Shown piece after piece: positions 44,077 through 57,714 of a stretch of 64,000 bases of DNA (its first letter is position 1; every line of letters begins with the position of its first letter). The stretch is from Bacteroidia bacterium (GTDB lineage: Bacteria; Bacteroidota; Bacteroidia; NS11-12g; UBA9320), in the NCBI GenBank assembly GCA_965216465.1, contig CBDCFW010000005.1:224001-288000 (forward strand), in the 5' to 3' direction. The notes beneath the pieces are model-generated. The model worked only from the letters and a program-made list of their open reading frames with translations, had not been told where the DNA came from and did no database searches. The translations under genes were made by a program, and so were the position numbers.

Positions 44077-45009
44077 ATGTACAAACCAAAAACCAACATA
44101 GTCCTAGTACTAATTTTTACATCAATAAGCACCTTATCATTTTCAAATAATAATATGTCATCATTTTATTCAGATTCTACGTTTCTCGCGTTAATGATTT
44201 TATCGCTAGTGTTAGTAGCCATCTCAGCCTTGTTGTTTGGGATTCAAAAACACTTGAAAACATTAAATCGTGAAAAGTATCCAGAGGAAGCAGAGCCTTC
44301 TTTGTACGAAAGAAAAATCAAGCCGGTTATTTCAAAATGGAATCCTACCGTAGCTACTTTGGTGATTACAGGAATTCTTCTTGTATTCTTCATTGGGCCT
44401 ATGGGTTACATGTATGGAATGAACGAGGTTGGTGTTCAGCAAGGATATGCTCCAGAACAACCAATCAACTTCTCGCATGAGATTCACGCTGGCCAGTATG
44501 AAATCGATTGTAAGTATTGCCACAGTACGGTAGAAAAGTCAAAATCAGCAAGTATTCCTTCATTGAACACCTGTATGAACTGTCACAAGTTTGTGAAAGC
44601 TTCTGACAAGTACAATGGAAATACTTCTCCAGAGATACAAAAAATCTATGATGCAATCGGATATGATGGTGAAAACATGGAGTACATCGAAGGTGCGGTT
44701 CAAAAACCAATTAAATGGGTGAGAATTCATAACCTTCCTGATTTGTCTTACTTCAATCACTCGCAACACGTTGTTGTTGGTAAGGTAGAATGTCAAACTT
44801 GTCACGGACCAATTGAAGAAATGGAAAGAGTTTACCAATTCTCTTCTCTTCAAATGGGATGGTGTGTTGATTGTCACCGCGAAAGAGGTATCGATTCAGA
44901 AAACAATAAGTACTATGAAGAAGTACATAAGAATATGAAAGCCGAAGGTAAGGACTACATTACCGTTGCTGAGAACGGGGGATTAGAATGTAGTAAGTGT
45001 CACTATTAA
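44077..45009 (+). CDS. actA: Alternative complex III pentaheme cytochrome c subunit ActA
   Basis: Five CxxCH motifs (CKYCH, CMNCH, CQTCH, CVDCH, CSKCH), PEQPINFSHEIHAG, N-terminal TMs. Confidence 0.92.
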   Translation: MYKPKTNIVLVLIFTSISTLSFSNNNMSSFYSDSTFLALMILSLVLVAISALLFGIQKHLKTLNREKYPEEAEPSLYERKIKPVISKWNPTVATLVITGILLVFFIGPMGYMYGMNEVGVQQGYAPEQPINFSHEIHAGQYEIDCKYCHSTVEKSKSASIPSLNTCMNCHKFVKASDKYNGNTSPEIQKIYDAIGYDGENMEYIEGAVQKPIKWVRIHNLPDLSYFNHSQHVVVGKVECQTCHGPIEEMERVYQFSSLQMGWCVDCHRERGIDSENNKYYEEVHKNMKAEGKDYITVAENGGLECSKCHY

Positions 45010-45034
45010 TTAAAAGTCTAGAGAATATACATAA

Positions 45035-48000
45035 ATGAAGTCTTCAAATAAATACTGGAAAGGAATCGAAGAGCTGGAGCAAACTCCTGATTTCGTTGAC
45101 GCAAATGTTAACGAATTTTCAGAAGGATTGCCGTTAGACAAAGTTTTCGGAAACGATGATGATGTTAGAGCGAATCGAAGAGACTTTCTTAAATTTTTTG
45201 GTTTCAGCCTTGGTGCGGTAACCTTAGCTGCGTGTAATAGAACGTCAGTTAAAAAAGCAGTTCCATATGCTGTTAAACCTGAAAACGTAACTCCTGGAGT
45301 ACCTTTATACTATGCTAGCTCATCGGTTAGCAACAGCGAAGGTTTCCCAATGCTTGTTAAAGTTAGAGAAGGACGACCTATTAAGTTCGAACCTAACAAA
45401 GAAGCGAGTTACTACGGTGGTGGTTTAGATGGTCTTGCACACTCTGCAATTCTTTCTTTGTATGACACCAACCGATTACAAGGTCCAATGCTTGCTGGAA
45501 ATAACCAATCAGTTGCATGGGATGAATTTGACAAAAACGTTGTTGCTGCTTTAGACAAAACTGCAGCCAGCGGTAAATCAATTGCTATTGTAACTGGATC
45601 AAATACTAGCTTAGTAAACAATCAAGCTATTGCCGATTTCAAAGCAAAATATGCAAATACCAACACGGTTGCTTATGAAGCGATTTCATACTCTGGAATC
45701 ACTCGAGCAAATAACAGCTCTTTTGGAAAAGCAGTTATTCCTGCGTACAATTTCGACAAAGCAGAAGTTATCGTAAGTTTTGGAGCTGATTTCTTAGGGA
45801 CTTGGATTAGCCCAGTAAGATTCTCTTCAGACTACGCTAAGAACAGAGTTCCTAAAAATGGTAAAATGTCTAAGCATTACCAATTTGAAGCCTTGATGTC
45901 TTTAACTGGGTCAAATGCTGACAGCCGTGCTCCAATGAAGATGAGTAACGTTGGTCAACACCTTATCGCATTGTACAATGCGCTTGGTGGATCTAGCTCA
46001 AGCAAAGGAATGGAGCTTGCCGGTAACGCAATTAAGAAAGCAGCCGCTGACTTAAAATCTGCACAAGGTAAATCGCTAGTTGTTTGTGGAAGCAATAACG
46101 AAGCTGACCAAATGTTGGTTAACGAAATCAATATGATGCTTGGTAACTATGGATCGACTATCGATCTTACCAACTATTATAAAGGTCAAAGTGCTGACGA
46201 AAGAGATTTCGCTCAGTTTGCTAAAGATGCAAAAGCTGGAAAATATGGTGCCGCAATCTTTGTAGATTGTAATCCAGTTTATTCTCATCCTCAAATTGCT
46301 GATGCTCTTGCTAAGATTGGTACAAAAATCAGTACAGCAATTACTATGGATGAAACAGCTAAAGGATGTTCGCACGTTGCTACCAACTTGCACGCTCTTG
46401 AAAGCTGGGACATTAAAGAGCCATACAACGGCAGATATGTATTCAACCAACCTACAATCTCTCCAGTATTTAACGGAAGACAGGCAGCTAGTTCACTAGT
46501 AGCTTGGGCAGGAGGTAATGTTGCTGACAATGGCGAATACACCCATGGATACAGCTACATGAAGTCTGTATTCGCTGACCAAATTGGCGGAAACTTCATC
46601 AAAACTATTGAGCAAGGATTTAAAGACAACGTAGGTGTTGCCTCTACTCCTGCCCTAGTTGGAAATGTAAACTTCGGTGACATTGCTAAGAAGTCTGACC
46701 AAACTGAAATTATCCTTTACCAAAAAGTGGGTGTTAGAGATGGTGCTTTTGGAAACACTCCTTGGGCACACGAAATGCCAGATCCAATCACTAAAGTAAC
46801 TTGGGATAACTACTTAACCGTTTCAATGCCAGACGCAAAAGCAAACGGATGGGTAGATGGAGACCTTGTTAACATATCAGCAGGTTCAGGTTCAATTGAA
46901 GCTCTACCTATCTTAATTCAACCAGGACAAGCTAAAGGTACATACGGTGTTGCTCTAGGATACGGAAGAGAATTACCTGATACCGTTAAGAATGACCTTA
47001 AAGACTTAGGTAAGAATGCCTTCCCTCTTGTAAATTACAAAGGAGGATCTGCTTCTTATACTATTTCAAACCCAAGCTTCGAAAAAGCAGAAGGTAGACG
47101 TCATGAGTTTGGACAAACACAAACACACTACTCTATTGAAGGTAGAGATATTGTAAGAGAAGCTAGCTTAGAAGAATACCGTAAAGATCCTCATGCTGGT
47201 GGACACTTCCATAAACCAAAACCAATTTCGTTGTGGGATGATCATGATTATAGCAAAGGTCACCACTGGGGTATGGCCATCGACCTAAACAAGTGTACAG
47301 GTTGTAGTGCTTGTATTGTAAGTTGTTCTATTGAAAACAACGTACCAATTGTAGGAAGAGATGAGGTTAGAAGAAGAAGAGAAATGCATTGGTTGCGTAT
47401 TGATAGATACTACAGCTTTGAAGTACCTGAAACTAAAGACTTGAGCTTAAGTCTTGTTAACGGTGGAGATCAGCACGTAGAAAAAGGTGACTACATGACT
47501 CAGGAGAAGGTAATGGAAGAATATTCTTCAGTAACAGATTCTACTGATTACTACCAAAATGTAAAAGTAGTTCACCAACCGATGTTATGTCAGCATTGTG
47601 ATAATGCTCCTTGTGAGACTGTATGCCCGGTACTAGCAACCACGCACAGTTCCGAAGGTCTTAACCAAATGACATACAACAGATGTATTGGAACTAAGTA
47701 CTGCGGAAATAACTGTCCGTATAAAGTAAGAAGATTTAACTGGTTTAAATACAATAACAACTCGAAGTTCGATTACCACTTCAGCAACGATCTAGGTAAA
47801 ATGGTTATTAACCCTGATGTTACTGTAAGATCAAGAGGTGTAATGGAGAAATGTAGTTTCTGTGTTCAAAGAATTCAAACTGCTAAGCTTACAGCTAAGA
47901 AAGAGAATCGTACGCTAGAAGCTAATGAGTTTACCACAGCATGTGCTCAAACTTGTCCTTCAGGAGCTATCGTATTTGGTGACATGAATGATCCAAACAG

Positions 48001-48130
48001 CGACATCTCTAAATTGTACAAAGACGAAAGAGCATATCACGTTATTGAAGAGTTAGGTACTAAGCCAAGTGTTAAGTACATGACTAAGATCAGAAATAAA
48101 GAAGCAAACACTAACCATAACGCGCATTAA
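45035..48130 (+). CDS. actB: Alternative complex III subunit ActB (TAT-exported molybdopterin-oxidoreductase-like plus Fe-S domain)
   Basis: RRDFLK TAT motif, LAAC lipobox, CTGCSACIVSC, CQHCDNAPCETVCP, CIGTKYCGNNCPY, EKCSFC...CAQTCP. Confidence 0.95.
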   Translation: MKSSNKYWKGIEELEQTPDFVDANVNEFSEGLPLDKVFGNDDDVRANRRDFLKFFGFSLGAVTLAACNRTSVKKAVPYAVKPENVTPGVPLYYASSSVSNSEGFPMLVKVREGRPIKFEPNKEASYYGGGLDGLAHSAILSLYDTNRLQGPMLAGNNQSVAWDEFDKNVVAALDKTAASGKSIAIVTGSNTSLVNNQAIADFKAKYANTNTVAYEAISYSGITRANNSSFGKAVIPAYNFDKAEVIVSFGADFLGTWISPVRFSSDYAKNRVPKNGKMSKHYQFEALMSLTGSNADSRAPMKMSNVGQHLIALYNALGGSSSSKGMELAGNAIKKAAADLKSAQGKSLVVCGSNNEADQMLVNEINMMLGNYGSTIDLTNYYKGQSADERDFAQFAKDAKAGKYGAAIFVDCNPVYSHPQIADALAKIGTKISTAITMDETAKGCSHVATNLHALESWDIKEPYNGRYVFNQPTISPVFNGRQAASSLVAWAGGNVADNGEYTHGYSYMKSVFADQIGGNFIKTIEQGFKDNVGVASTPALVGNVNFGDIAKKSDQTEIILYQKVGVRDGAFGNTPWAHEMPDPITKVTWDNYLTVSMPDAKANGWVDGDLVNISAGSGSIEALPILIQPGQAKGTYGVALGYGRELPDTVKNDLKDLGKNAFPLVNYKGGSASYTISNPSFEKAEGRRHEFGQTQTHYSIEGRDIVREASLEEYRKDPHAGGHFHKPKPISLWDDHDYSKGHHWGMAIDLNKCTGCSACIVSCSIENNVPIVGRDEVRRRREMHWLRIDRYYSFEVPETKDLSLSLVNGGDQHVEKGDYMTQEKVMEEYSSVTDSTDYYQNVKVVHQPMLCQHCDNAPCETVCPVLATTHSSEGLNQMTYNRCIGTKYCGNNCPYKVRRFNWFKYNNNSKFDYHFSNDLGKMVINPDVTVRSRGVMEKCSFCVQRIQTAKLTAKKENRTLEANEFTTACAQTCPSGAIVFGDMNDPNSDISKLYKDERAYHVIEELGTKPSVKYMTKIRNKEANTNHNAH

Positions 48131-48139
48131 TAATAAAGC

Positions 48140-49486
48140 ATGTATCAAGCAGAAATTAGACAACCATTAGTAACCGGAGGTAAAACGTACTCCGATGTAA
48201 CTGAAGACATCTGCAGGCCAATTGAAAACAAGCCAACTAAATCTTGGTGGCTCGGATTCACCATTGCTCTAATATGTTTATTCATCTTAGTAGCAACACT
48301 TACTTGGACTGTATGGGAAGGTATCGGAACGTGGAACGTAAACAAAACGGTAATGTGGGGTTGGGATATCACCAACTTCGTATTCTGGGTTGGTATTGGT
48401 CACGCCGGTACTTTGATCTCAGCTATCTTATTACTATTTAGACAAAAATGGAGAATGTCCATTAACCGATCTGCAGAAGCAATGACAATCTTTGCGGTAT
48501 TCTGTGCTGCAATATTTCCATTGTTTCACATGGGTAGAGTTTGGTTAGGCTACTGGCCTTTACCACTGCCAAATGCATTTGGTTCGTTATGGGTAAACTT
48601 TAACTCTCCTCTTCTTTGGGACGTATTTGCAATCTCTACTTATCTATCGGTTTCTTTAGTATTCTGGTACTTAGGTTTGATTCCAGATATAGCTACAGTA
48701 AGAGATAGAGCTAAAACTAAAGCTAGAAAATTCTGGTACGGATTCTTTGCAATGGGCTGGAACGGTTCAGCAAAGTCTTGGGCACGTTATGAAGTTGTTG
48801 CTTTGATTCTTGCGGGTATTTCTACCCCACTCGTACTTTCGGTACACACAATTGTATCGATGGACTTCGCGACATCTGTAATTCCTGGATGGCACACCAC
48901 CATCTTCCCTCCATACTTCGTTGCCGGTGCAATTTTCTCTGGTTTCGGTATGGTATTAACCCTTCTTTTAATTGCTCGTCACGTAATGAATTACCAAAAC
49001 TACATTACCACTGAGCATTTAGAGGCCATGTGTAAGGTAATCTTGCTTACAGGGTCATTAGTAGGTTTGGCATATATCACTGAGTTCGTTATTGCAGCAT
49101 ACTCAGGATACCAATATGAACAATACGCGTTCGCAAACAGAATGTTTGGACCTTATGCTTGGGCATACTGGACCATGATGTTCTGTAACCTCGTTGCTCC
49201 TCAAGTATTCTGGAGTAAATGGGCAAGAACTACACCATGGTTCATCTTCATCGTTTCGATCGTTGTAAACATTGGAATGTGGTTTGAGCGTTTCGTAATT
49301 ATCGTAACATCTCTACACAGAGACTTCCTACCAAGTTCTTGGGTAATGTACCACGCAACTTGGGTTGAGGCAGGAATCTTTATTGGAACATTTGGATTAT
49401 TCTTCACTTGTTTCTTCTTATTTGCCAAATTCCTTCCGGTAATCAACATGGCAGAGGTTAAAACAATTATTAAAGACAAAGAGTAA
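48140..49486 (+). CDS. actC: Alternative complex III NrfD-like quinol-binding subunit ActC
   Basis: [43 protein letters not shown]. Confidence 0.95.
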
Positions 49487-49487
49487 A

Positions 49488-50084
49488 ATGGTAGATAAAA
49501 GTATATTATTAGACGATAAGAAGTTTACCCTTGGAATCTTCGATGATTCAGATAAACTTTTACACGCGGTTGAAACCTTGCGTAACAAAGGGGTTAAAAT
49601 CTTTGATTGCTACACTCCATTCCCAGTTCACCACTTAGATAAAGCTTTGGGTTATGAAAGAACTAACTTAACAATAAGTGCATTTCTATGTGGGTTATTA
49701 GGTGCATTGTCAGGGTTTACCCTTGCCTACACCATGAACGTTATGGACTGGCCAATGATCATCGGTGGTAAACCAACAACACTTAACATGTTTACCAGTT
49801 TTATTCCGGTAATCTTTGAGCTTACCATTCTATTTACAGCATTTGGTATGGTAATCATGTTCTTCGCGAGAAGTCGAATGATTCATGGCATTAAAGAAGA
49901 TATCTTAGATGTTAAACAAACCGATGATAAGATGATTTTAGCCATTGACAATAGTGTTGATCAATCAATCGCTAACGCAGAAATCATTTCTACCTTACAA
50001 AGCGAAGGAGCTATTGAAGTGCGTGAGCAAGCTGAAGCATTTAACACTTCACATACAATGGAAGATGAGCAAGTTAACAATTAA
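49488..50084 (+). CDS. actD: Alternative complex III subunit ActD (DUF3341)
   Basis: YTPFPVHHLD, DWPMIIGGKP, IPVIFELTILF. Confidence 0.92.
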   Translation: MVDKSILLDDKKFTLGIFDDSDKLLHAVETLRNKGVKIFDCYTPFPVHHLDKALGYERTNLTISAFLCGLLGALSGFTLAYTMNVMDWPMIIGGKPTTLNMFTSFIPVIFELTILFTAFGMVIMFFARSRMIHGIKEDILDVKQTDDKMILAIDNSVDQSIANAEIISTLQSEGAIEVREQAEAFNTSHTMEDEQVNN

Positions 50085-50096
50085 TGAATTAGACCA

Positions 50097-50777
50097 ATGA
50101 AGCTTAACAATATAATAAAAGTAGGATTAGTACTAGCACTTCCATTAGCAGGAATGATGTCTTGTACAAGCTCTGGTGATAATCCAGGTATTGAGTACGC
50201 TCCTCAGATGTATGTATCTGATGCTTATGAGCCATTTTCTCAAGAGGCAGATGCACCATATGAATACAACGAGCATGGAATGACTATGCGACTTCCTGTA
50301 AACGGAACAGTTGCTAGAGGTCAAGTAAACTTTGTTTATCCGCATGCTAACAACAGCGAAGGATACGAAGCAAGTGCATCTTATACTTCATGGATTGCTG
50401 CTACAGAAGAAAATGTAGCCGAAGGAGAAAGATTATACAACATCAACTGCTGGCATTGTCACGGTAAAAAAGGTAAAAACGACGGACCGATTTTTAAATC
50501 TAAGAAAATGCCTGGTCCAAGTTGGCCTAGTTACAGTGCTGATTACATTAAGACCTTAGCTGATGGTAAAATGTATCACTCAATTACTTACGGTAAAGGT
50601 TTAATGGGGCCTCATGCTCCAATGCTTACACCAGACGAAAGATGGCAAGTAATTCACTACCTTAGAAAACTAAGCTTAGGCGATGATTTTGTTTATGCCT
50701 CTGAAGATGCTGTAATCGAGCCTGCTGAAGAAGTTGAGGAAGCTCAAGAAGAAACAAACGATAACGCAACACACTAA
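50097..50777 (+). CDS. actE: Alternative complex III monoheme cytochrome c lipoprotein ActE
   Basis: Lipobox MMSC, EYAPQMY, CWHCHG, YGKGLMG, RWQVIHY. Confidence 0.92.
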   Translation: MKLNNIIKVGLVLALPLAGMMSCTSSGDNPGIEYAPQMYVSDAYEPFSQEADAPYEYNEHGMTMRLPVNGTVARGQVNFVYPHANNSEGYEASASYTSWIAATEENVAEGERLYNINCWHCHGKKGKNDGPIFKSKKMPGPSWPSYSADYIKTLADGKMYHSITYGKGLMGPHAPMLTPDERWQVIHYLRKLSLGDDFVYASEDAVIEPAEEVEEAQEETNDNATH

Positions 50778-50782
50778 TTGAA

Positions 50783-52177
50783 ATGGGACATCATATAATT
50801 AAAGAAGTAACACAAGAAACATTTCAGTTCACTGGAAGATCAAAAATGATTGCTATCCTACTTTTTGTAGTAGGAGCTATTATGGCCGGAGTAGGTGCCA
50901 TGCAAGTACAAAACAACTGGGACAAGCCTGCACATGAAGAAGCAACTGAAGCTACTCACGAAGAAGCGGCTGTTGAAGAACACCATGCTACGCTTACTTC
51001 TGCTGAGTCTCCGTCTGAAGGAGCAGCAGAAGCAGATGGTCACCATGTAGAAGGAGAACACCATGAAACTACTTTTATGAGTAGAGTATGGGCTAACTTG
51101 CTTATGAATAGCTATTATTTCTGGCTATTTGCAATTGCATCTTTATTCTTCTTGGCCGTTAACTACGTTGCGAACGCTGGATGGGCAACCATGATAAAGC
51201 GTATTCCAGAGGCAATCAGTAGTTATACCTTAGTAGGATTTGTTATCTTATTTGCTGTAATTTTACTAGGACGTCACGATATGTATCACTGGGTACAATA
51301 TTTTGGAAGTTCAGCAGCAGGTGATGCAAATAGTGCTGGTTACGATGCCATTTTGGAAAGTAAAAGCTGGTTACTGAACAACGGTACCATCTTCTTCTTT
51401 ATTCCATTTGTATTCATCGTATGGTACTTTATCAGACATAAGTTAAGAACAAACAGTATTAAAGAAGATAAAGAAGGTGGTTTGAGCTTCTTCAGAAACT
51501 CAACCAGATGGTCTGCAGGATTCATCTTCTTCTTTGCATTTTCTTTCTCTGCTTTATCTTGGGTAATCATTATGAGTATTGATGCTCACTGGTACTCAAC
51601 CATGTTCTCTGTATACAACTTTGCAATCACCTTCGTTACAGGTCTTTCTGTAATGATGCTGGTATTGCTTTACCTTAAGTCAAAAGGTTACATGGAAATG
51701 GTTTCTGACGAAGTTGTTCACGATTTAGGTAAGTTCATGTTTGCGTTCTCTATTTTCTGGGGATACATTTTCTTAGGACAATGGTTACTTATTTGGTATA
51801 CCAACCTTCCTGAAGAAACTGTGTACTTTAACGCAAGACTTTCAGAATACTACAAGCCAATGTTCAGATTGAACATCGTTCTTAGCTTCTTAGCTCCTTT
51901 CTTAATCTTAATGATGAGAAACGCGAAGAGAAGTCCTAAGATTATCTTACTAGCGGCTGCAGCGATCTTAATTGGTCACTGGGTAGATGTTTATCTACTA
52001 GTTATGCCAGGTGTTGTAGGAGATCATGCAGGAATCGGAATGTTAGAAATTGGTACTACAATGGCATTTGCAGGATTGTTCATTTACATTGTGCTTAACT
52101 CGTTGAGTAAAGCCAACTTGTATCCAGCAAATCACCCTTACTTGTTAGAATCTGCTAACCACGATGTTGGACCATAA
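50783..52177 (+). CDS. actF: Alternative complex III membrane subunit ActF
   Basis: MSIDAHWYSTMF, HDLGKFMFAFSIFWGY, LIWYTNLPEE; about 10 TMs. Confidence 0.92.
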   Translation: MGHHIIKEVTQETFQFTGRSKMIAILLFVVGAIMAGVGAMQVQNNWDKPAHEEATEATHEEAAVEEHHATLTSAESPSEGAAEADGHHVEGEHHETTFMSRVWANLLMNSYYFWLFAIASLFFLAVNYVANAGWATMIKRIPEAISSYTLVGFVILFAVILLGRHDMYHWVQYFGSSAAGDANSAGYDAILESKSWLLNNGTIFFFIPFVFIVWYFIRHKLRTNSIKEDKEGGLSFFRNSTRWSAGFIFFFAFSFSALSWVIIMSIDAHWYSTMFSVYNFAITFVTGLSVMMLVLLYLKSKGYMEMVSDEVVHDLGKFMFAFSIFWGYIFLGQWLLIWYTNLPEETVYFNARLSEYYKPMFRLNIVLSFLAPFLILMMRNAKRSPKIILLAAAAILIGHWVDVYLLVMPGVVGDHAGIGMLEIGTTMAFAGLFIYIVLNSLSKANLYPANHPYLLESANHDVGP

Positions 52178-53939: not shown

Positions 53940-54218
53940 TTATAGTTCAGATGGTTTGTATGTTATCTTACAATTGTTGCAAACTACTTCGCTTCCCTTT
54001 TCCACCAATGCAATTTTATAGAGGTGTTTGTCTGCATAGTCCTGAATCCACCCTTTTTTATGATCAACTTGATCAATACTAACATTATTGTTTTTGGCCG
54101 CCTCATAAAAGTGCTTTCCATACTCTTGCCGGCCCCAACAATTTGGACAAAGACCTTCAGGTGTTTCAGTGCTGTTGTTAGTTTTTTTCAGTGCTGAGAG
54201 TAAATCATTTAAGTTCAT
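53940..54218 (-). CDS. Small Cys-rich hypothetical protein (CPNCW...CNNC)
   Basis: PEGLCPNCWGRQEY, GWIQDY, CNNC; likely metal-binding. Confidence 0.75.
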   Translation of the reverse strand: MNLNDLLSALKKTNNSTETPEGLCPNCWGRQEYGKHFYEAAKNNNVSIDQVDHKKGWIQDYADKHLYKIALVEKGSEVVCNNCKITYKPSEL

Positions 54219-54327
54219 AAGTTAACCCTTTAAACGAATGTAAGTTCTATTTCTGACAGATGCATAATATTGACCTAGACTTGATTATTCAAAACAATAA
54301 TTAATGTATCTTTATCGGCGATTTTCT

Positions 54328-54753
54328 ATGTTAAATAAAGCTTCAGAGTATGCAATAAAAGCAATGATTTACTTGGCCACACATCAAGACCATCAACGTT
54401 ACATTCGTATTCCTGAGGTGGCAGAAGCAATCAATTCTCCGGCCGCATTTACCTCCAAAATCCTCCAACAATTAAGAAGTAACGGCTTAGTTTTATCAGC
54501 TAAAGGAGCTAAGGGAGGTTTTAAGATAAATGCTGAAAAGAAAATTAGTCTTCTGCAAATTGTTCAATCCCTAGAAGGAAAAGAAGTCTTTACACGATGT
54601 ATTCTTGGACTCGACGAATGCTCATCTTCAAAACCATGTCCTGTGCACGAGCAATATAAATCCGTTAAGGCCCAGCTGCTTGAAATTATGACACGATCAT
54701 ACATCGATGACTATATCCCTGAAGTCGTTAGTAGAGCAATGAATCTAAAATAG
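54328..54753 (+). CDS. Rrf2-family transcriptional regulator (Fe-S binding)
   Basis: MLNKASEYAIKAMIYLA, SAKGAKGGF, C-x6-C-x5-C-x2-H (CILGLDECSSSKPCPVH). Start 54328 preferred over 54304. Confidence 0.92.
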   Translation: MLNKASEYAIKAMIYLATHQDHQRYIRIPEVAEAINSPAAFTSKILQQLRSNGLVLSAKGAKGGFKINAEKKISLLQIVQSLEGKEVFTRCILGLDECSSSKPCPVHEQYKSVKAQLLEIMTRSYIDDYIPEVVSRAMNLK

Positions 54754-54903: not shown

Positions 54904-54911
54904 TATATTTG
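54904..54911 (+). promoter_or_regulatory. -7 promoter element of the T9SS/multicopper oxidase operon
   Basis: TATATTTG 20 nt before ATG 54932. Confidence 0.6.
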
Positions 54912-54931: not shown

Positions 54932-55624
54932 ATGAAGTTATTATTTACCTCATTAGCCCTTTGTATGTTTTTAATTGGTTCTGCACAAAACTTTGTATAT
55001 AGTACTGATCAAGATCTTCGACTAGAAGAAACCAACTCTAACTACCTTGGCGGTGAAGTTAAATTCACTACACCTGAACCTGAAGATATTACCTTCAAAT
55101 GGAGAAAGTTGAAAACAGATGTACCTGCAGAATGGTCATTTTCTCTTTGTGGTTATGGTACTTGTCATGTTGGGTTGCCTAGTAGTGGAACGTTCCTTCC
55201 AATTACAAAAACGCAAATGGAAGATGGTAAAGAAGCTTACTTCATCTTAAACACAAGTCCAAAAACTTTTGACTCAGCTTACCTGCAGCTTTATGTTTAT
55301 GATCAAAATGACCAAGATCGTGGTGATACAGTATCTATAACGCTTGTAAACAAAGGTGTATCGAGTATTTCAATTGCACCTAATAAAGCTATTTCAATCT
55401 ACCCAAATCCGGCTAAAGACCTAATCAACATCCGTATTCCAAACGATGGACAAACGTATACAGCATCTATGAGTAATCTTTTGGGAGAAACCATCCTAGA
55501 AATTGGTCAACTTAATTCAGGTGTTAACGGTGTTGATGTTTCTACGCTTAGTAAAGGAATTTACTTTGTTCAGCTATCTTCGACCGATGGAAGTACAAAG
55601 ACCCAAAAAGTAATTGTAGAATAG
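54932..55624 (+). CDS. T9SS type A cargo protein (small beta-sandwich domain plus CTD)
   Basis: Signal peptide (GSA-Q), WSFSLCGYGTCH, CTD IYPNPAKD...LSKGIYFV...TQKVIVE. Confidence 0.85.
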   Translation: MKLLFTSLALCMFLIGSAQNFVYSTDQDLRLEETNSNYLGGEVKFTTPEPEDITFKWRKLKTDVPAEWSFSLCGYGTCHVGLPSSGTFLPITKTQMEDGKEAYFILNTSPKTFDSAYLQLYVYDQNDQDRGDTVSITLVNKGVSSISIAPNKAISIYPNPAKDLINIRIPNDGQTYTASMSNLLGETILEIGQLNSGVNGVDVSTLSKGIYFVQLSSTDGSTKTQKVIVE

Positions 55625-55627
55625 CCA

Positions 55628-56503
55628 ATGACCACCACTTTGGGTAGAAGCTTATCGCTATTTTTTACCTTCATTCTTCTTGGTTGTTTATGCAATGTGC
55701 ATGCAAGCCAGCAAACGATTTATATTAATAAAGGACATTTAATCACCAGTGATAGCCTATCACTGCCTTACTACACATACAATTCTTCTAGCAATTTTGA
55801 ATCAAGTAATACATTAATCAAGCTTGCTGTTAATGACAGCTTGTACCTCACAATTGTAAATAATGATAGCTCAGATCATGGCTTTACTATCAAAGAAATG
55901 TCACTAGGTGACACTATTTCGGCCTTTGATTCGATAACAATTGGACTGAAATTTAATGAAATTGGAACGTTCATCATGTTTGACCATTTGAACAATTCTC
56001 GATGTGCAAATATGGGCCTCTCTGCAATTCTGCATGTTTATGATCCTAACGCAGAACTTCCTTCATTTTATTGGAATATTAAAGACCATCAAAAAGAGGT
56101 TTATCATCAATTAGAAAATGAATTAGTAGTGGACTGGTCTCAATACTATCCCCAATATTTTACACTAAACGGAAGGCATAATCCGCATATCAACAAAGAC
56201 TCAATAGCTCGAGTTACAGGAAGCGTTGGTGACAGCATTCTTATTCATATGGTAAACACAGGAAACTCAACACATTCCATTCATTATCACGGATATCATG
56301 CTGAAATTGTTCAGTCTTCAAAATACCCGAGCCATGTTAAAAGAAAGAAAGACACTTTTGCCGTTCTGCCTTTTGAAGTTGTTGTCGTTCTCTTGGTTCC
56401 TGATCAAGTTGGAGAATATCCGGTTCACGATCATAATCTAGTGGCTGTAACAGGTGGAGGAATATACCCCAACGGAATGTTTTTGACCCTAAAGATTCAA
56501 TAA
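55628..56503 (+). CDS. Two-cupredoxin-domain multicopper-oxidase-like protein (His ligands in domain 2 only; no T9SS CTD)
   Basis: Signal peptide; domain 2 has HSIHYHG and GEYPVHDH; domain 1 motifs are degenerate (DHGFTI, FDHL). Confidence 0.85.
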   Translation: MTTTLGRSLSLFFTFILLGCLCNVHASQQTIYINKGHLITSDSLSLPYYTYNSSSNFESSNTLIKLAVNDSLYLTIVNNDSSDHGFTIKEMSLGDTISAFDSITIGLKFNEIGTFIMFDHLNNSRCANMGLSAILHVYDPNAELPSFYWNIKDHQKEVYHQLENELVVDWSQYYPQYFTLNGRHNPHINKDSIARVTGSVGDSILIHMVNTGNSTHSIHYHGYHAEIVQSSKYPSHVKRKKDTFAVLPFEVVVVLLVPDQVGEYPVHDHNLVAVTGGGIYPNGMFLTLKIQ

Positions 56504-57714
56504 TGAAGTACTATTTAATCCTGATTATATCGCTCTTTTCGAGCTTGTCTTATGCTCAAGATGATGTGGATGTATTTCTTATTGCTCGAAATACTGGAGA
56601 GAAAGTTTTGGCCAATAACGACACTATTCGTGTTTTTGGATTTGCAGAAGATCTTTCTTCCCACCCTAGTATTCCTGGACCTACTATTTATGCAAAGGAA
56701 GGAGACTCAGTGCACATCGATCTTTGGAATGTATCGCAAGGTGCTCCGCATACTATTCACTTGCACGGATTAGATGTTGATCAACAAAACGATGGTGTTC
56801 CTCATTTATCATTTGAAGTTGAACACATGGATCATGGATTCTACCACTTCAAAGCACCGCATGCAGGCACCTACTTGTACCACTGTCATGTGGCATCTAC
56901 AGTTCATGTGCAGGCGGGTATGTATGGTTTGATTATTATTAAGCCCACAGATGGAACCAAGCAGACTTGGAATGATGGATATACCTATGCCAATGAGTTT
57001 GCTTTTATGACTTCTGAAATTGACACCGTTTGGCATCATGACAGTGTTTTGAATCACGGGCACGGACCGAATAGCGATCCAGTTAAGATTCCTATTTACA
57101 ACCCACAATTTTTCTTAGTAAATGGCCACTCAGACCAACAAATTATTGACCAAGATGTAAAAGTAAAATCTGGCCAAAATCAAAATAGCTATTTGCGTTT
57201 TGCGAATATTGGTTTTTTCGCCAATGAGGTAATTTTCCCTTCGTCACTTAATGCAAAAATTGTTGCTTCCGACGGACGGCCTCTGCCCGAAGTGGAGGTT
57301 TCTGACACCTTGACCTTATTTCCAGGAGAACGTTATGGGGTTCTGATAAACAATCCGGCAATAGGCACTGATAGTATTCTTTTGAATTTCAGAGATCTGA
57401 ACACCAATAGGCTTTGGAACACGCAGTTTATTCCCTATGAAAATGTTGAAGTCCTGAACATCGAACAAACTTTTGATTCTGAACTAGTGGTTTATCCCAA
57501 TCCATTCACAAAAACAATCGATGTGGTGAGCAAGGTGGTGTTTGATGCCATCACCGTAATTGATTTAAACGGGAGAATGGTGTTTGAACAAAAAATTGAA
57601 AGCAAAGTCTCAACGCTTCAACAAATTGATTTGGCTTTATCACCAGGATTGTACAATCTCGTACTGTGGAACAACGACTTACAAGTTGGCCAAAAGAAAA
57701 TAGTGCGACTTTAA
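56503..57714 (+). CDS. Two-cupredoxin-domain multicopper-oxidase-like protein with T1 Cu site in domain 1 and T9SS type A CTD
   Basis: Signal peptide; PGPTIYAKEGD, HTIHLHG, TYLYHCHVASTVHVQAGM; domain 2 (ASDGRPL, FPGERY) lacks His motifs; CTD VYPNPF...GLYNL...KKIVRL. Confidence 0.88.
   Translation: MKYYLILIISLFSSLSYAQDDVDVFLIARNTGEKVLANNDTIRVFGFAEDLSSHPSIPGPTIYAKEGDSVHIDLWNVSQGAPHTIHLHGLDVDQQNDGVPHLSFEVEHMDHGFYHFKAPHAGTYLYHCHVASTVHVQAGMYGLIIIKPTDGTKQTWNDGYTYANEFAFMTSEIDTVWHHDSVLNHGHGPNSDPVKIPIYNPQFFLVNGHSDQQIIDQDVKVKSGQNQNSYLRFANIGFFANEVIFPSSLNAKIVASDGRPLPEVEVSDTLTLFPGERYGVLINNPAIGTDSILLNFRDLNTNRLWNTQFIPYENVEVLNIEQTFDSELVVYPNPFTKTIDVVSKVVFDAITVIDLNGRMVFEQKIESKVSTLQQIDLALSPGLYNLVLWNNDLQVGQKKIVRL

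Follow-up and report, generated by a model that had tools for sequence, protein, structure and literature searches.

Two adjacent genes in a 64,000-nucleotide stretch of a Bacteroidia bacterium genome (assembly GCA_965216465.1, contig CBDCFW010000005.1, positions 224,001 to 288,000; this whole stretch is hereafter called the window) probably specify one heteromeric multicopper oxidase, with one subunit from each gene and a type-C two-domain enzyme as its ancestor. Gene A (55628..56503, + strand) and gene B (56503..57714, + strand) encode two-domain multicopper-oxidase paralogues of 291 and 403 aa, respectively, whose copper ligands lie on different chains. The stop codon of A (TAA, 56501-56503) and the start codon of B (ATG, 56503-56505) share one base in a TAATG overlap (56501..56505, + strand), and the coupling of the two genes proposed in the initial annotation of this DNA was borne out by the coordinates of the open reading frames (ORFs). 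Conservation is given below for alignments of 78 Bacteroidota sequences each of A (alignment A1) and B (alignment A2), and for 59 complete pairs from a distant metagenomic clade.

Three Pfam oxidase families matched B: Cu-oxidase_3 (PF07732) at residues 56-149 (62.6 bits, cut-off 21), Cu-oxidase (PF00394) at residues 191-284 (24.6 bits, cut-off 21) and PF07731 (37.3 bits, cut-off 20.4). Domain 1 contains the motif H83-T-I-H86-L-H88 (56749..56766, + strand), comprising a type-1 His and two cluster His, and the motif H127-C128-H129-x5-H135-x4-M140 (56881..56922, + strand), comprising two further cluster His as well as the type-1 Cys, His and axial Met. Among solved structures, A and B are both closest by sequence to the type-C enzymes 3g5w (blue copper oxidase of Nitrosomonas europaea) and 2zwn (metagenomic mgLAC), with E-values of 5.5e-20 and 6.5e-18 for B, and 1.9e-8 and 2.3e-9 for A, respectively. 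In the phmmer alignment the domain-2 ligand block HAIHTHGH of 3g5w stands opposite NEVIFPSS in B. The ligand columns of B domain 2 contain no conserved His in the 78 Bacteroidota sequences and never a His in the 59 distant pairs. B thus has the two cupredoxin domains and the N-terminal type-1 site of a type-C enzyme, but the two HxH pairs that such an enzyme carries in domain 2 of the same chain sit in A. The full type-1 site, the cluster His of domain 1 and the ligand-free domain 2 had all been described in the initial annotation, and the motifs and the 3g5w alignment agree with that description. Its statement that domain 2 has no His motifs holds at the ligand positions, but there is an H185-G-H187 in the interdomain linker, off the ligand positions and conserved at only 81% and 60%. 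Another linker residue, H178, is kept in 99% of the Bacteroidota sequences and in 59/59 distant pairs. B scored far under the cut-offs of three other families: TIGR02376 (copper-containing nitrite reductase; 67.2 bits vs. 296.3), TIGR01480 (CopA/PcoA-type; 70 bits vs. 478.95, domain 1 only) and NF008205 (CueO; 48 bits vs. 525, domain 1 only).

In A, Pfam recognized Cu-oxidase_2 (PF07731) at residues 185-272 (40.7 bits, cut-off 20.4), and domain 1 gave only a sub-threshold match to Cupredoxin_1 (22.4 bits vs. 27). By their Pfam matches both proteins belong to the multicopper oxidase superfamily, and the A1 and A2 profiles match each other with an E-value of 2.2e-23 at 18% identity. Domain 2 of A carries H216-S-I-H219-Y-H221-G-Y-H224 (56273..56299, + strand), in which H219 and H221 were taken as cluster ligands, and H267-D-H269 (56426..56434, + strand), the second pair of cluster ligands. 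The first block aligns with the domain-2 ligand block of 3g5w and 2zwn, and the second with the HDH of both enzymes. As the initial annotation had read from the sequence, HSIHYH and HDH are present in this domain and a type-1 Cys is missing; A has no HCH motif either. In domain 1, F-D-H stands opposite the H-C-H of B and 2zwn, with D119 at the position of the type-1 Cys, so that A lacks the type-1 site of type-C enzymes. To call domain 1 degenerate is correct insofar as the type-1 Cys and the cluster ligands are gone, but H84 (99%) and D119 are kept, also in 59/59 pairs of the distant clade. A, too, stayed below the cut-off of TIGR02376 (18.5 bits vs. 296.3).

Two-domain oxidases are trimers in which the trinuclear site is held by residues of two protomers, with the type-1 site located N-terminally in type C (PMC13151041), and the eight ligands are divided four and four between adjacent monomers (preprint 10.64898/2026.07.28.741245). 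The same premise underlay the initial annotation. Given that known enzymes share the cluster between protomers, the split of the ligands means that a cluster cannot arise from A alone or from B alone; throughout the 78 + 59 pairs, no single chain or homo-oligomer would contain a type-1 site together with all eight cluster His. B domain 1 and A domain 2 jointly supply all eight, as had been proposed, in 78/78 and 59/59 pairs. A single catalytic unit would form where A domain 2 packs on B domain 1. The type-1 (blue) copper of B (H83, C128, H135 and M140) would take electrons from the substrate, and a trinuclear cluster held by H86, H88, H127 and H129 of B and H219, H221, H267 and H269 of A would reduce O2 to water. 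Gene anatomy, ligand pattern, conservation, synteny and the modelled interface were observed directly in the analysis, and from these we infer the joint cluster, the obligate heteromer, the route of A and the substrate.

The complementary ligand pattern turned out to be strictly conserved. In the Bacteroidota alignments H216, H219, H221, H224, H267 and H269 of A and H83, H86, H88, H127, C128, H129, H135 and M140 of B are invariant (78/78). In the 59 distant pairs every ligand column is kept, H224 of A likewise, except for the axial residue of the type-1 site, which is M in 52/59 and L in 7/59. The survey of conservation suggested in the initial annotation therefore came out in favor of the split: the eight cluster His and the type-1 His, Cys and His are the same in 78/78 and 59/59 pairs. 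Searches at E ≤1e-3 returned 369 relatives of A and 1810 relatives of B, of which the best 120 each were examined. All 120 relatives of A have H..H.HG and H[DN]HN and lack HCH, and all 120 relatives of B have H..H.HG and HCHx5Hx4M. Close homologs keeping every ligand in one chain were not found among these 240 proteins. Since it is invariant across families, the ligand pattern is far beyond chance.

The two genes are also inherited together. A synteny scan of the genome_contigs set, with one genome per species, found 80 loci with A, and in 80/80 the A-like gene is directly followed by a B-like gene. There are 77 full pairs, two of them in a single locus; the contig end truncates B in 2 further cases and the contig start truncates A in 1, and 1 is a read-through ORF. 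By count, 50/77 pairs have the 4-nucleotide A/B overlap when ORFs are called from the first start codon. Of the 191 genomes examined in the window's order, 18 have A. These 18 are also the ones with strong B matches (E up to 5.5e-80), and the genes adjoin in 19/19 places. After this value the B search shows a gap to 8.6e-16, where the next match is an ordinary three-domain oxidase. The strict co-occurrence that the initial annotation had proposed to look for in Bacteroidota was thus found in both surveys. Cultured carriers include Lishizhenia tianjinensis (locus L012) and Aureispira anguillae (protein P0070). Neither Pfam families nor the A1 and A2 profiles revealed a third paralogue in the window's genome (100% complete). 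Candidate complete two-domain oxidases in the window's order were rejected, as the regions contained three-domain oxidases or no motifs.

Some loci depart from the simple two-gene form. One Parvicellaceae genome has two tandem A-B pairs on the same strand (L036:5229-12183), and a metagenome locus (L107) also has two pairs. In P0241 (686 aa), A, a linker and B are cleanly joined in frame, and the sorting tail stands at the end; it is a single record from one 7.9-kb contig and hence weak evidence for a fusion. Two further candidate fusions, P0231 and L055 (689 aa), were discarded; they contain an internal B signal peptide and an altered A C-terminus, and their 90% cluster also contains separate 285-aa and 403-aa forms. 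They are likely a frameshift allele or an error and were not counted. In the window's genus, a three-domain type IX secretion system (T9SS) multicopper oxidase is broken into overlapping ORFs of 246 and 367 aa in one locus (L098) and intact at 569 aa in another (L097); this split is a frameshift or assembly error.

The initial annotation had suggested a survey of Bacteroidota genomes, but the pair extends beyond this phylum and is also present in Alphaproteobacteria, Actinomycetota and the distant metagenomic clade. The A profile matched 1669 proteins among 1.84 billion representatives at E ≤1e-3 (470 at ≤1e-10, 140 at ≤1e-30), and 141 of the best 150 of these matches lack a type-1 motif and 9 have one. 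Many of the A-like proteins are from outside Bacteroidota, some with twin-arginine signals and some with long N-terminal extensions. In 17 diverse A-like proteins the domain-2 HxHGxH and HxH motifs are invariant, and so is the Asp equivalent to D119. The distant clade was scanned with a closer A-like profile (A5), and 80 of the 230 confirmed metagenome stretches were analyzed. A B-like ORF lies directly downstream of A in 67/80; the other 13 have ≤629 nucleotides after A. Indioceanicola profundi (Alphaproteobacteria) has two pairs, annotated as 'hypothetical protein' and 'multicopper oxidase domain-containing protein', and in Arthrobacter sp. FW305-BF8 the A-like gene runs into the B-like gene. 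In the A-like proteins of I. profundi (L182:4968-6122, L185) and in P0385, all of the twin-arginine translocation (Tat) type, the second pair of domain 2 is H-C-H with no downstream His or Met, which may be a relic of a former domain-2 type-1 site.

A maximum-likelihood tree of 55 rows was built from 8 of the 77 Bacteroidota pairs and the window's pair, 7 of the 59 metagenome pairs, 10 Tat-type A-like proteins, the named examples and complete forms; its root is undefined and its support values are those of the SH-like approximate likelihood-ratio test (SH-aLRT) only. Twenty-seven A-like rows form one group (SH-aLRT 100) and all 18 B-like rows form another (SH-aLRT 88), beside the complete type-C enzymes, with a parallel branching order of lineages in the two groups. 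This would correspond to one old duplication followed by complementary ligand loss, after which several phyla inherited the two genes together. Both the A-like protein P0352 and the C-terminal half of P0344 fall among the complete enzymes and look like independent repeats of the loss of first-domain ligands. For P0344 the two halves are mutually nearest in the tree, which indicates that the ligand loss arose independently there. P0344 (745 aa; labelled 'manganese oxidase' by one source) and P0348 are single chains consisting of a complete type-C oxidase, an A-like unit with a ligand-free first domain and a C-terminal cupredoxin. P0352 (641 aa) has complete oxidases of the P0355/P0359 type as its closest relatives, and its C-terminal cupredoxin has a type-1-like Cys/His motif.

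A structural model of the complex was calculated for B residues 19-322 and A residues 27-291 with paired alignments in three runs. The A+B model reached an ipSAE of 0.95, compared with 0.00 for the best of 3 controls; this mark was attained by 58/80 solved complexes and by 2/110 mismatched pairs. The three runs share ≥98% of contacts, and the predicted local distance difference test (pLDDT) score of the partner is ≥94. The modelled interface is formed on the B side by residues 86, 88-102 and 131-137 of domain 1 together with domain 2, and on the A side by domain 2 only (153-287, including H219, H221, H224 and 268-272). The placement of A domain 2 on B domain 1 is the one that the initial annotation had put forward for modelling, and none of the contacts fell on the alternative interface between A domain 1 and B domain 2. 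With the ligands left out, the interface residues of A are more conserved than the rest of the protein (0.759 vs. 0.536, 0 of 5000 permutations), as are those of B (0.705 vs. 0.605, p ~0.014). The model supports binding of A to B, short of demonstrating it. Together with the ligand split and the strict co-occurrence, it supports the obligate hetero-oligomer that had been proposed, which is so far a prediction.

We considered whether B could be the sole enzyme, with A serving as a non-catalytic scaffold, copper-delivery or assembly factor whose His bind copper transiently. The absence of a type-1 site from A fits such a function, and so does the low conservation of its domain 1, the least conserved part of the protein (mean column identity 0.47 vs. 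0.68 for domain 2). Moreover, A has no T9SS tail, unlike B, and genes for copper chaperones (HMA, SCO1) occur near related loci. However, four of the eight cluster ligands are missing from B throughout the 78 + 59 pairs, so that B could not reduce O2 in the known way. The His of A are found exactly at the ligand positions of the solved type-C enzymes and are invariant across phyla, and the model sets them against H86 and H88 of B. A merely auxiliary A is hence improbable.

We regard as similarly improbable that A and B form separate homo-oligomers that share nothing but an operon, each with smaller, non-classical copper sites: a type-1 site and a four-His site in B, and four or five His with D119 in A. 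H84 and D119 of A are kept everywhere and would face A domain 2 in a homotrimer, and the copper-containing nitrite reductase NirK has a non-trinuclear site at an interface of this kind. An A-like gene without an adjoining B-like gene, the sole exception seen, is present on pTC1 of Paenarthrobacter aurescens. (A plasmid search with P0360 yielded generic oxidases only, at ~28% identity.) On the other hand, the A and B genes are strictly adjacent and co-inherited, the Indioceanicola pairs have a Tat signal on A only, all three runs of the complex model chose the contact of B domain 1 with A domain 2, and A by itself would be without an entry site for electrons.

The route by which the two proteins leave the cytoplasm bears on a third alternative. 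Both have N-terminal Sec-type signal peptides, which were read by eye. B ends with a T9SS type-A C-terminal sorting domain (57490..57705, + strand; residues 330-401; PF18962 37 bits vs. 27, TIGR04183 31.3 vs. 23) and therefore has both the Sec signal and the sorting domain that define type-A cargo, whereas A lacks the sorting domain in all 78 sequences. The initial annotation had called the pair T9SS-exported, and this stands for B but not for A, which has only the Sec signal. The sorting-domain family has 131 matches in the window's genome, where SprA is also encoded. T9SS cargo has a Sec signal as well as a folded C-terminal domain, and it passes in the folded state through a very large barrel (PMC9251779). 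A and B would enter the periplasm by Sec, with B and the co-transcribed protein U (described below) carrying the T9SS tail. If the enzyme acts at the cell surface, A must travel bound to B; the other possibilities are that the complex acts in the periplasm or that A and B part. In the two loci of Indioceanicola profundi a twin-arginine signal is found on the A-like protein; the B-like protein, whose gene lies directly downstream, lacks a signal peptide. In the Tat hitchhiker mechanism a partner is exported with the signal-bearing subunit as a complex (PMC4273604), so that the signal on the A-like protein alone implies, by analogy, joint export of the two Indioceanicola proteins as a complex.

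That the A-B complex is transient and periplasmic, with B exported alone by the T9SS for a surface role that needs no trinuclear cluster, for example as a blue-copper electron carrier, we consider very unlikely. The location of the sorting domain on B only is as expected from such a route, as is the definition of T9SS cargo by a Sec signal and a folded C-terminal domain (PMC9251779). Yet the four cluster His of B are invariant and would be needless in a plain electron carrier, and a barrel that is large enough for folded proteins may also admit a bound partner. The natural A-linker-B protein P0241 has the tail at its end, and the same pair is present in lineages without a T9SS. Finally, the notion that A and B are decaying remnants of duplicated oxidase genes with no joint function can be dismissed, for although half of each protein is without ligands, open frames and invariant ligands are maintained in hundreds of sequences from several phyla and the ligand-free domains are themselves conserved (0.47 for A domain 1 and 0.57 for B domain 2, vs. 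~0.3 for signal peptides and tail), which already contradicts decay.

The sequences themselves do not disclose a substrate; the neighborhood of the pair, in which one representative per cluster was scanned for each neighbor family, hints at copper. Near the 77 Bacteroidota loci there are genes for an MbnP-like protein, itself T9SS-tailed (26/77), an MbnH-like di-haem peroxidase (29/77) and an HMA-domain protein (9/77). MbnH forms the kynurenine of MbnP, which binds copper (PMC11951088). In the metagenome loci SCO1/SenC is found downstream of the pair in 18/80, and a Crp/Fnr regulator precedes the pair in 11 to 14 of 80. The role of the enzyme would be copper handling at the cell envelope, e.g. 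oxidation of Cu(I) or of another metal ion. Oxidation of copper or other metal ions is the most likely of the possible roles, although on the available sequences we can propose it only tentatively; the copper neighbors could instead load the enzyme with copper. A conserved secreted protein of ~200 aa that matches no Pfam family (motif DPFDYxYCGG...CGPRNQ; e.g. L142:3088-3690) is encoded after the pair and before SCO1/SenC in 18/80 metagenome loci (L101-L180). Elsewhere in the window's genome, on another contig (G000:C6:209806-217487; L084, L085, L087, L088 and L090), two MbnP-like and three MauG/MbnH-like genes lie within 8 kb, and one of the MbnP proteins has a T9SS tail.

Several observations weigh against an obligate A-B oxidase of the kind proposed. 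Two subunits cannot close the known three-subunit ring without orphan half-sites. The model does not account for H84 and D119 in domain 1 of A, which are kept in all clades. The score of the complex may reflect likeness to, or memory of, solved homotrimers rather than binding, and for B domain 2 alone the interface is not significantly more conserved than the rest (0.625 vs. 0.541, p ~0.08). The A-like gene of pTC1 stands alone. The copper neighbors are found at only about one third of the loci and are absent from the window. Since A has no tail, A and B may end in different compartments, and we know of no demonstrated case of a tail-less partner carried through the T9SS; nothing relevant to such export was retrieved from the literature searched.

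The pair is part of a three-gene operon. Its first gene, U (54932..55624, + strand), encodes a secreted protein; U, A and B run in the same direction nearly without spacers, and A starts three bases past U. The end of B overlaps a convergent gene, so that the U-A-B unit ends there. The N-terminal domain of U is an immunoglobulin (Ig)-like beta-sandwich with invariant W68, C73 and C78, and the AlphaFold2 model (pLDDT 91.8) consists of two beta-sandwiches. At the C-terminus is a Por_Secre_tail (residues 156-229, 53.3 bits, cut-off 27; TIGR04183 47.4 bits), apart from which no family was found for U in Pfam and NCBIfam. Foldseek retrieved only generic Ig-like folds, including the N-terminal domain of PorA at a TMt of 0.61, and a search of the Atlas gave no match at ≥0.9. 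Judged by these family and fold searches, U is no cupredoxin. Of the 71 A genes with ≥750 nucleotides of upstream sequence, 65 are preceded by a U-like ORF.

Upstream of U lie an Rrf2 regulator gene (54304-54753) and, between the DEAD-box helicase and Rrf2 genes, a zinc-ribbon-like ORF (53940-54218, - strand; 92 aa, two CxxC pairs). The Rrf2, zinc-ribbon, DEAD-box helicase and epimerase genes are not kept beside the pair in the 80 related loci. A scan of promoters and terminators revealed no excess over shuffled sequences. The sequence TATATTTG at 54904-54911, 21 nucleotides upstream of the U start, matches TAnnTTTG, which we take to be the -7 element of Bacteroidota promoters; on this assumption, it suggests that U-A-B has its own promoter, apart from the Rrf2 gene. 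Farther upstream (44077-52177) is a run of co-directional ORFs of 310, 1031, 448, 198, 226 and 464 aa, the last of which encodes a polytopic membrane protein; the run resembles an operon of a respiratory complex.

A broader proposal is that the window's pair belongs to a class of multicopper oxidases that are obligately heteromeric and so far undescribed; this class would be old and widespread, with the pair as one of its lineages, present in Bacteroidota, Alphaproteobacteria, Actinomycetota and uncultured clades, in which duplication and complementary ligand loss left a single cluster per assembly, and in which the Bacteroidota A rides on B through the T9SS. Taken as a whole, this proposal falls just short of an even chance. 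The current view of two-domain multicopper oxidases is that of homotrimers whose three sites are identical, and a cluster built from two genes would change their annotation; A is now called 'hypothetical' or 'multicopper oxidase domain-containing', and either gene viewed alone looks broken. If the proposal is true, expression of a single gene for biotechnology would yield inactive protein. The pair would show cleanly how complementary degeneration can lock paralogues into a heteromer. It would also be a non-covalent, living parallel to the transition from two-domain trimers with three sites to three- and six-domain oxidases with a single site, and a model for the origin of the latter. Should A leave the cell with B, the question of the export of complexes by the T9SS would be raised, and A riding on B would be the first example of partner-carrying export by this system. 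The MbnP/MbnH, HMA and SCO1 neighbors suggest that a cell-envelope copper module, so far unstudied, exists in Flavobacteriales that are abundant in marine and freshwater habitats.

The initial annotation knew of no description of such an arrangement, and we likewise found none of a heteromeric split multicopper oxidase in the literature searched, which mostly excludes subscription journals; only the fungal laccases of the POXA3/NLAC type and Nmar_1354 surfaced. Among the better-known systems, ceruloplasmin-type six-domain oxidases are cupredoxin rings with one trinuclear cluster and several ligand-free scaffold domains. The A-B assembly would share the ligand-free domains and the single cluster, but ceruloplasmin is a single polypeptide, whereas A and B are separate subunits. 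In NirK the type-2 site is mononuclear and the His are spaced differently. B resembles NirK, whose trimer consists of chains with two cupredoxin domains, of which domain 1 holds a type-1 site, and has its catalytic copper where subunits meet; B matches the NirK family TIGR02376 weakly; unlike NirK, B has the oxidase motifs HxxHxH and HCH and scores far under the family cut-off. With the type-C enzymes 3g5w and 2zwn the pair shares the two cupredoxin domains, the N-terminal type-1 site (in B) and a cluster between two protomers (PMC13151041). These enzymes are homotrimers with all ligands in one chain, however, whereas the ligands of A and B are on two paralogous chains that can form at most one complete site per A-B contact. 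In the fungal heterodimeric laccases POXA3 and NLAC the small subunit is no copper oxidase and gives no copper ligands (PMC10443355), and the large subunit is complete alone. As in Tat hitchhiker complexes such as E. coli PaoABC, only one subunit, the A-like protein, carries the export signal in Indioceanicola (PMC4273604); in the window, unlike in hitchhikers, A and B are both Sec-signalled, and the second step would be the T9SS. Nmar_1354 of Nitrosopumilus maritimus is an alpha-alpha-alpha-prime heterotrimer and, like A and B, a two-domain oxidase with non-identical chains (PMC11761707). Unlike A and B, these chains come from one gene and differ by proteolysis in an extra cupredoxin domain, and the full cluster is present at every interface (PMC11761707).

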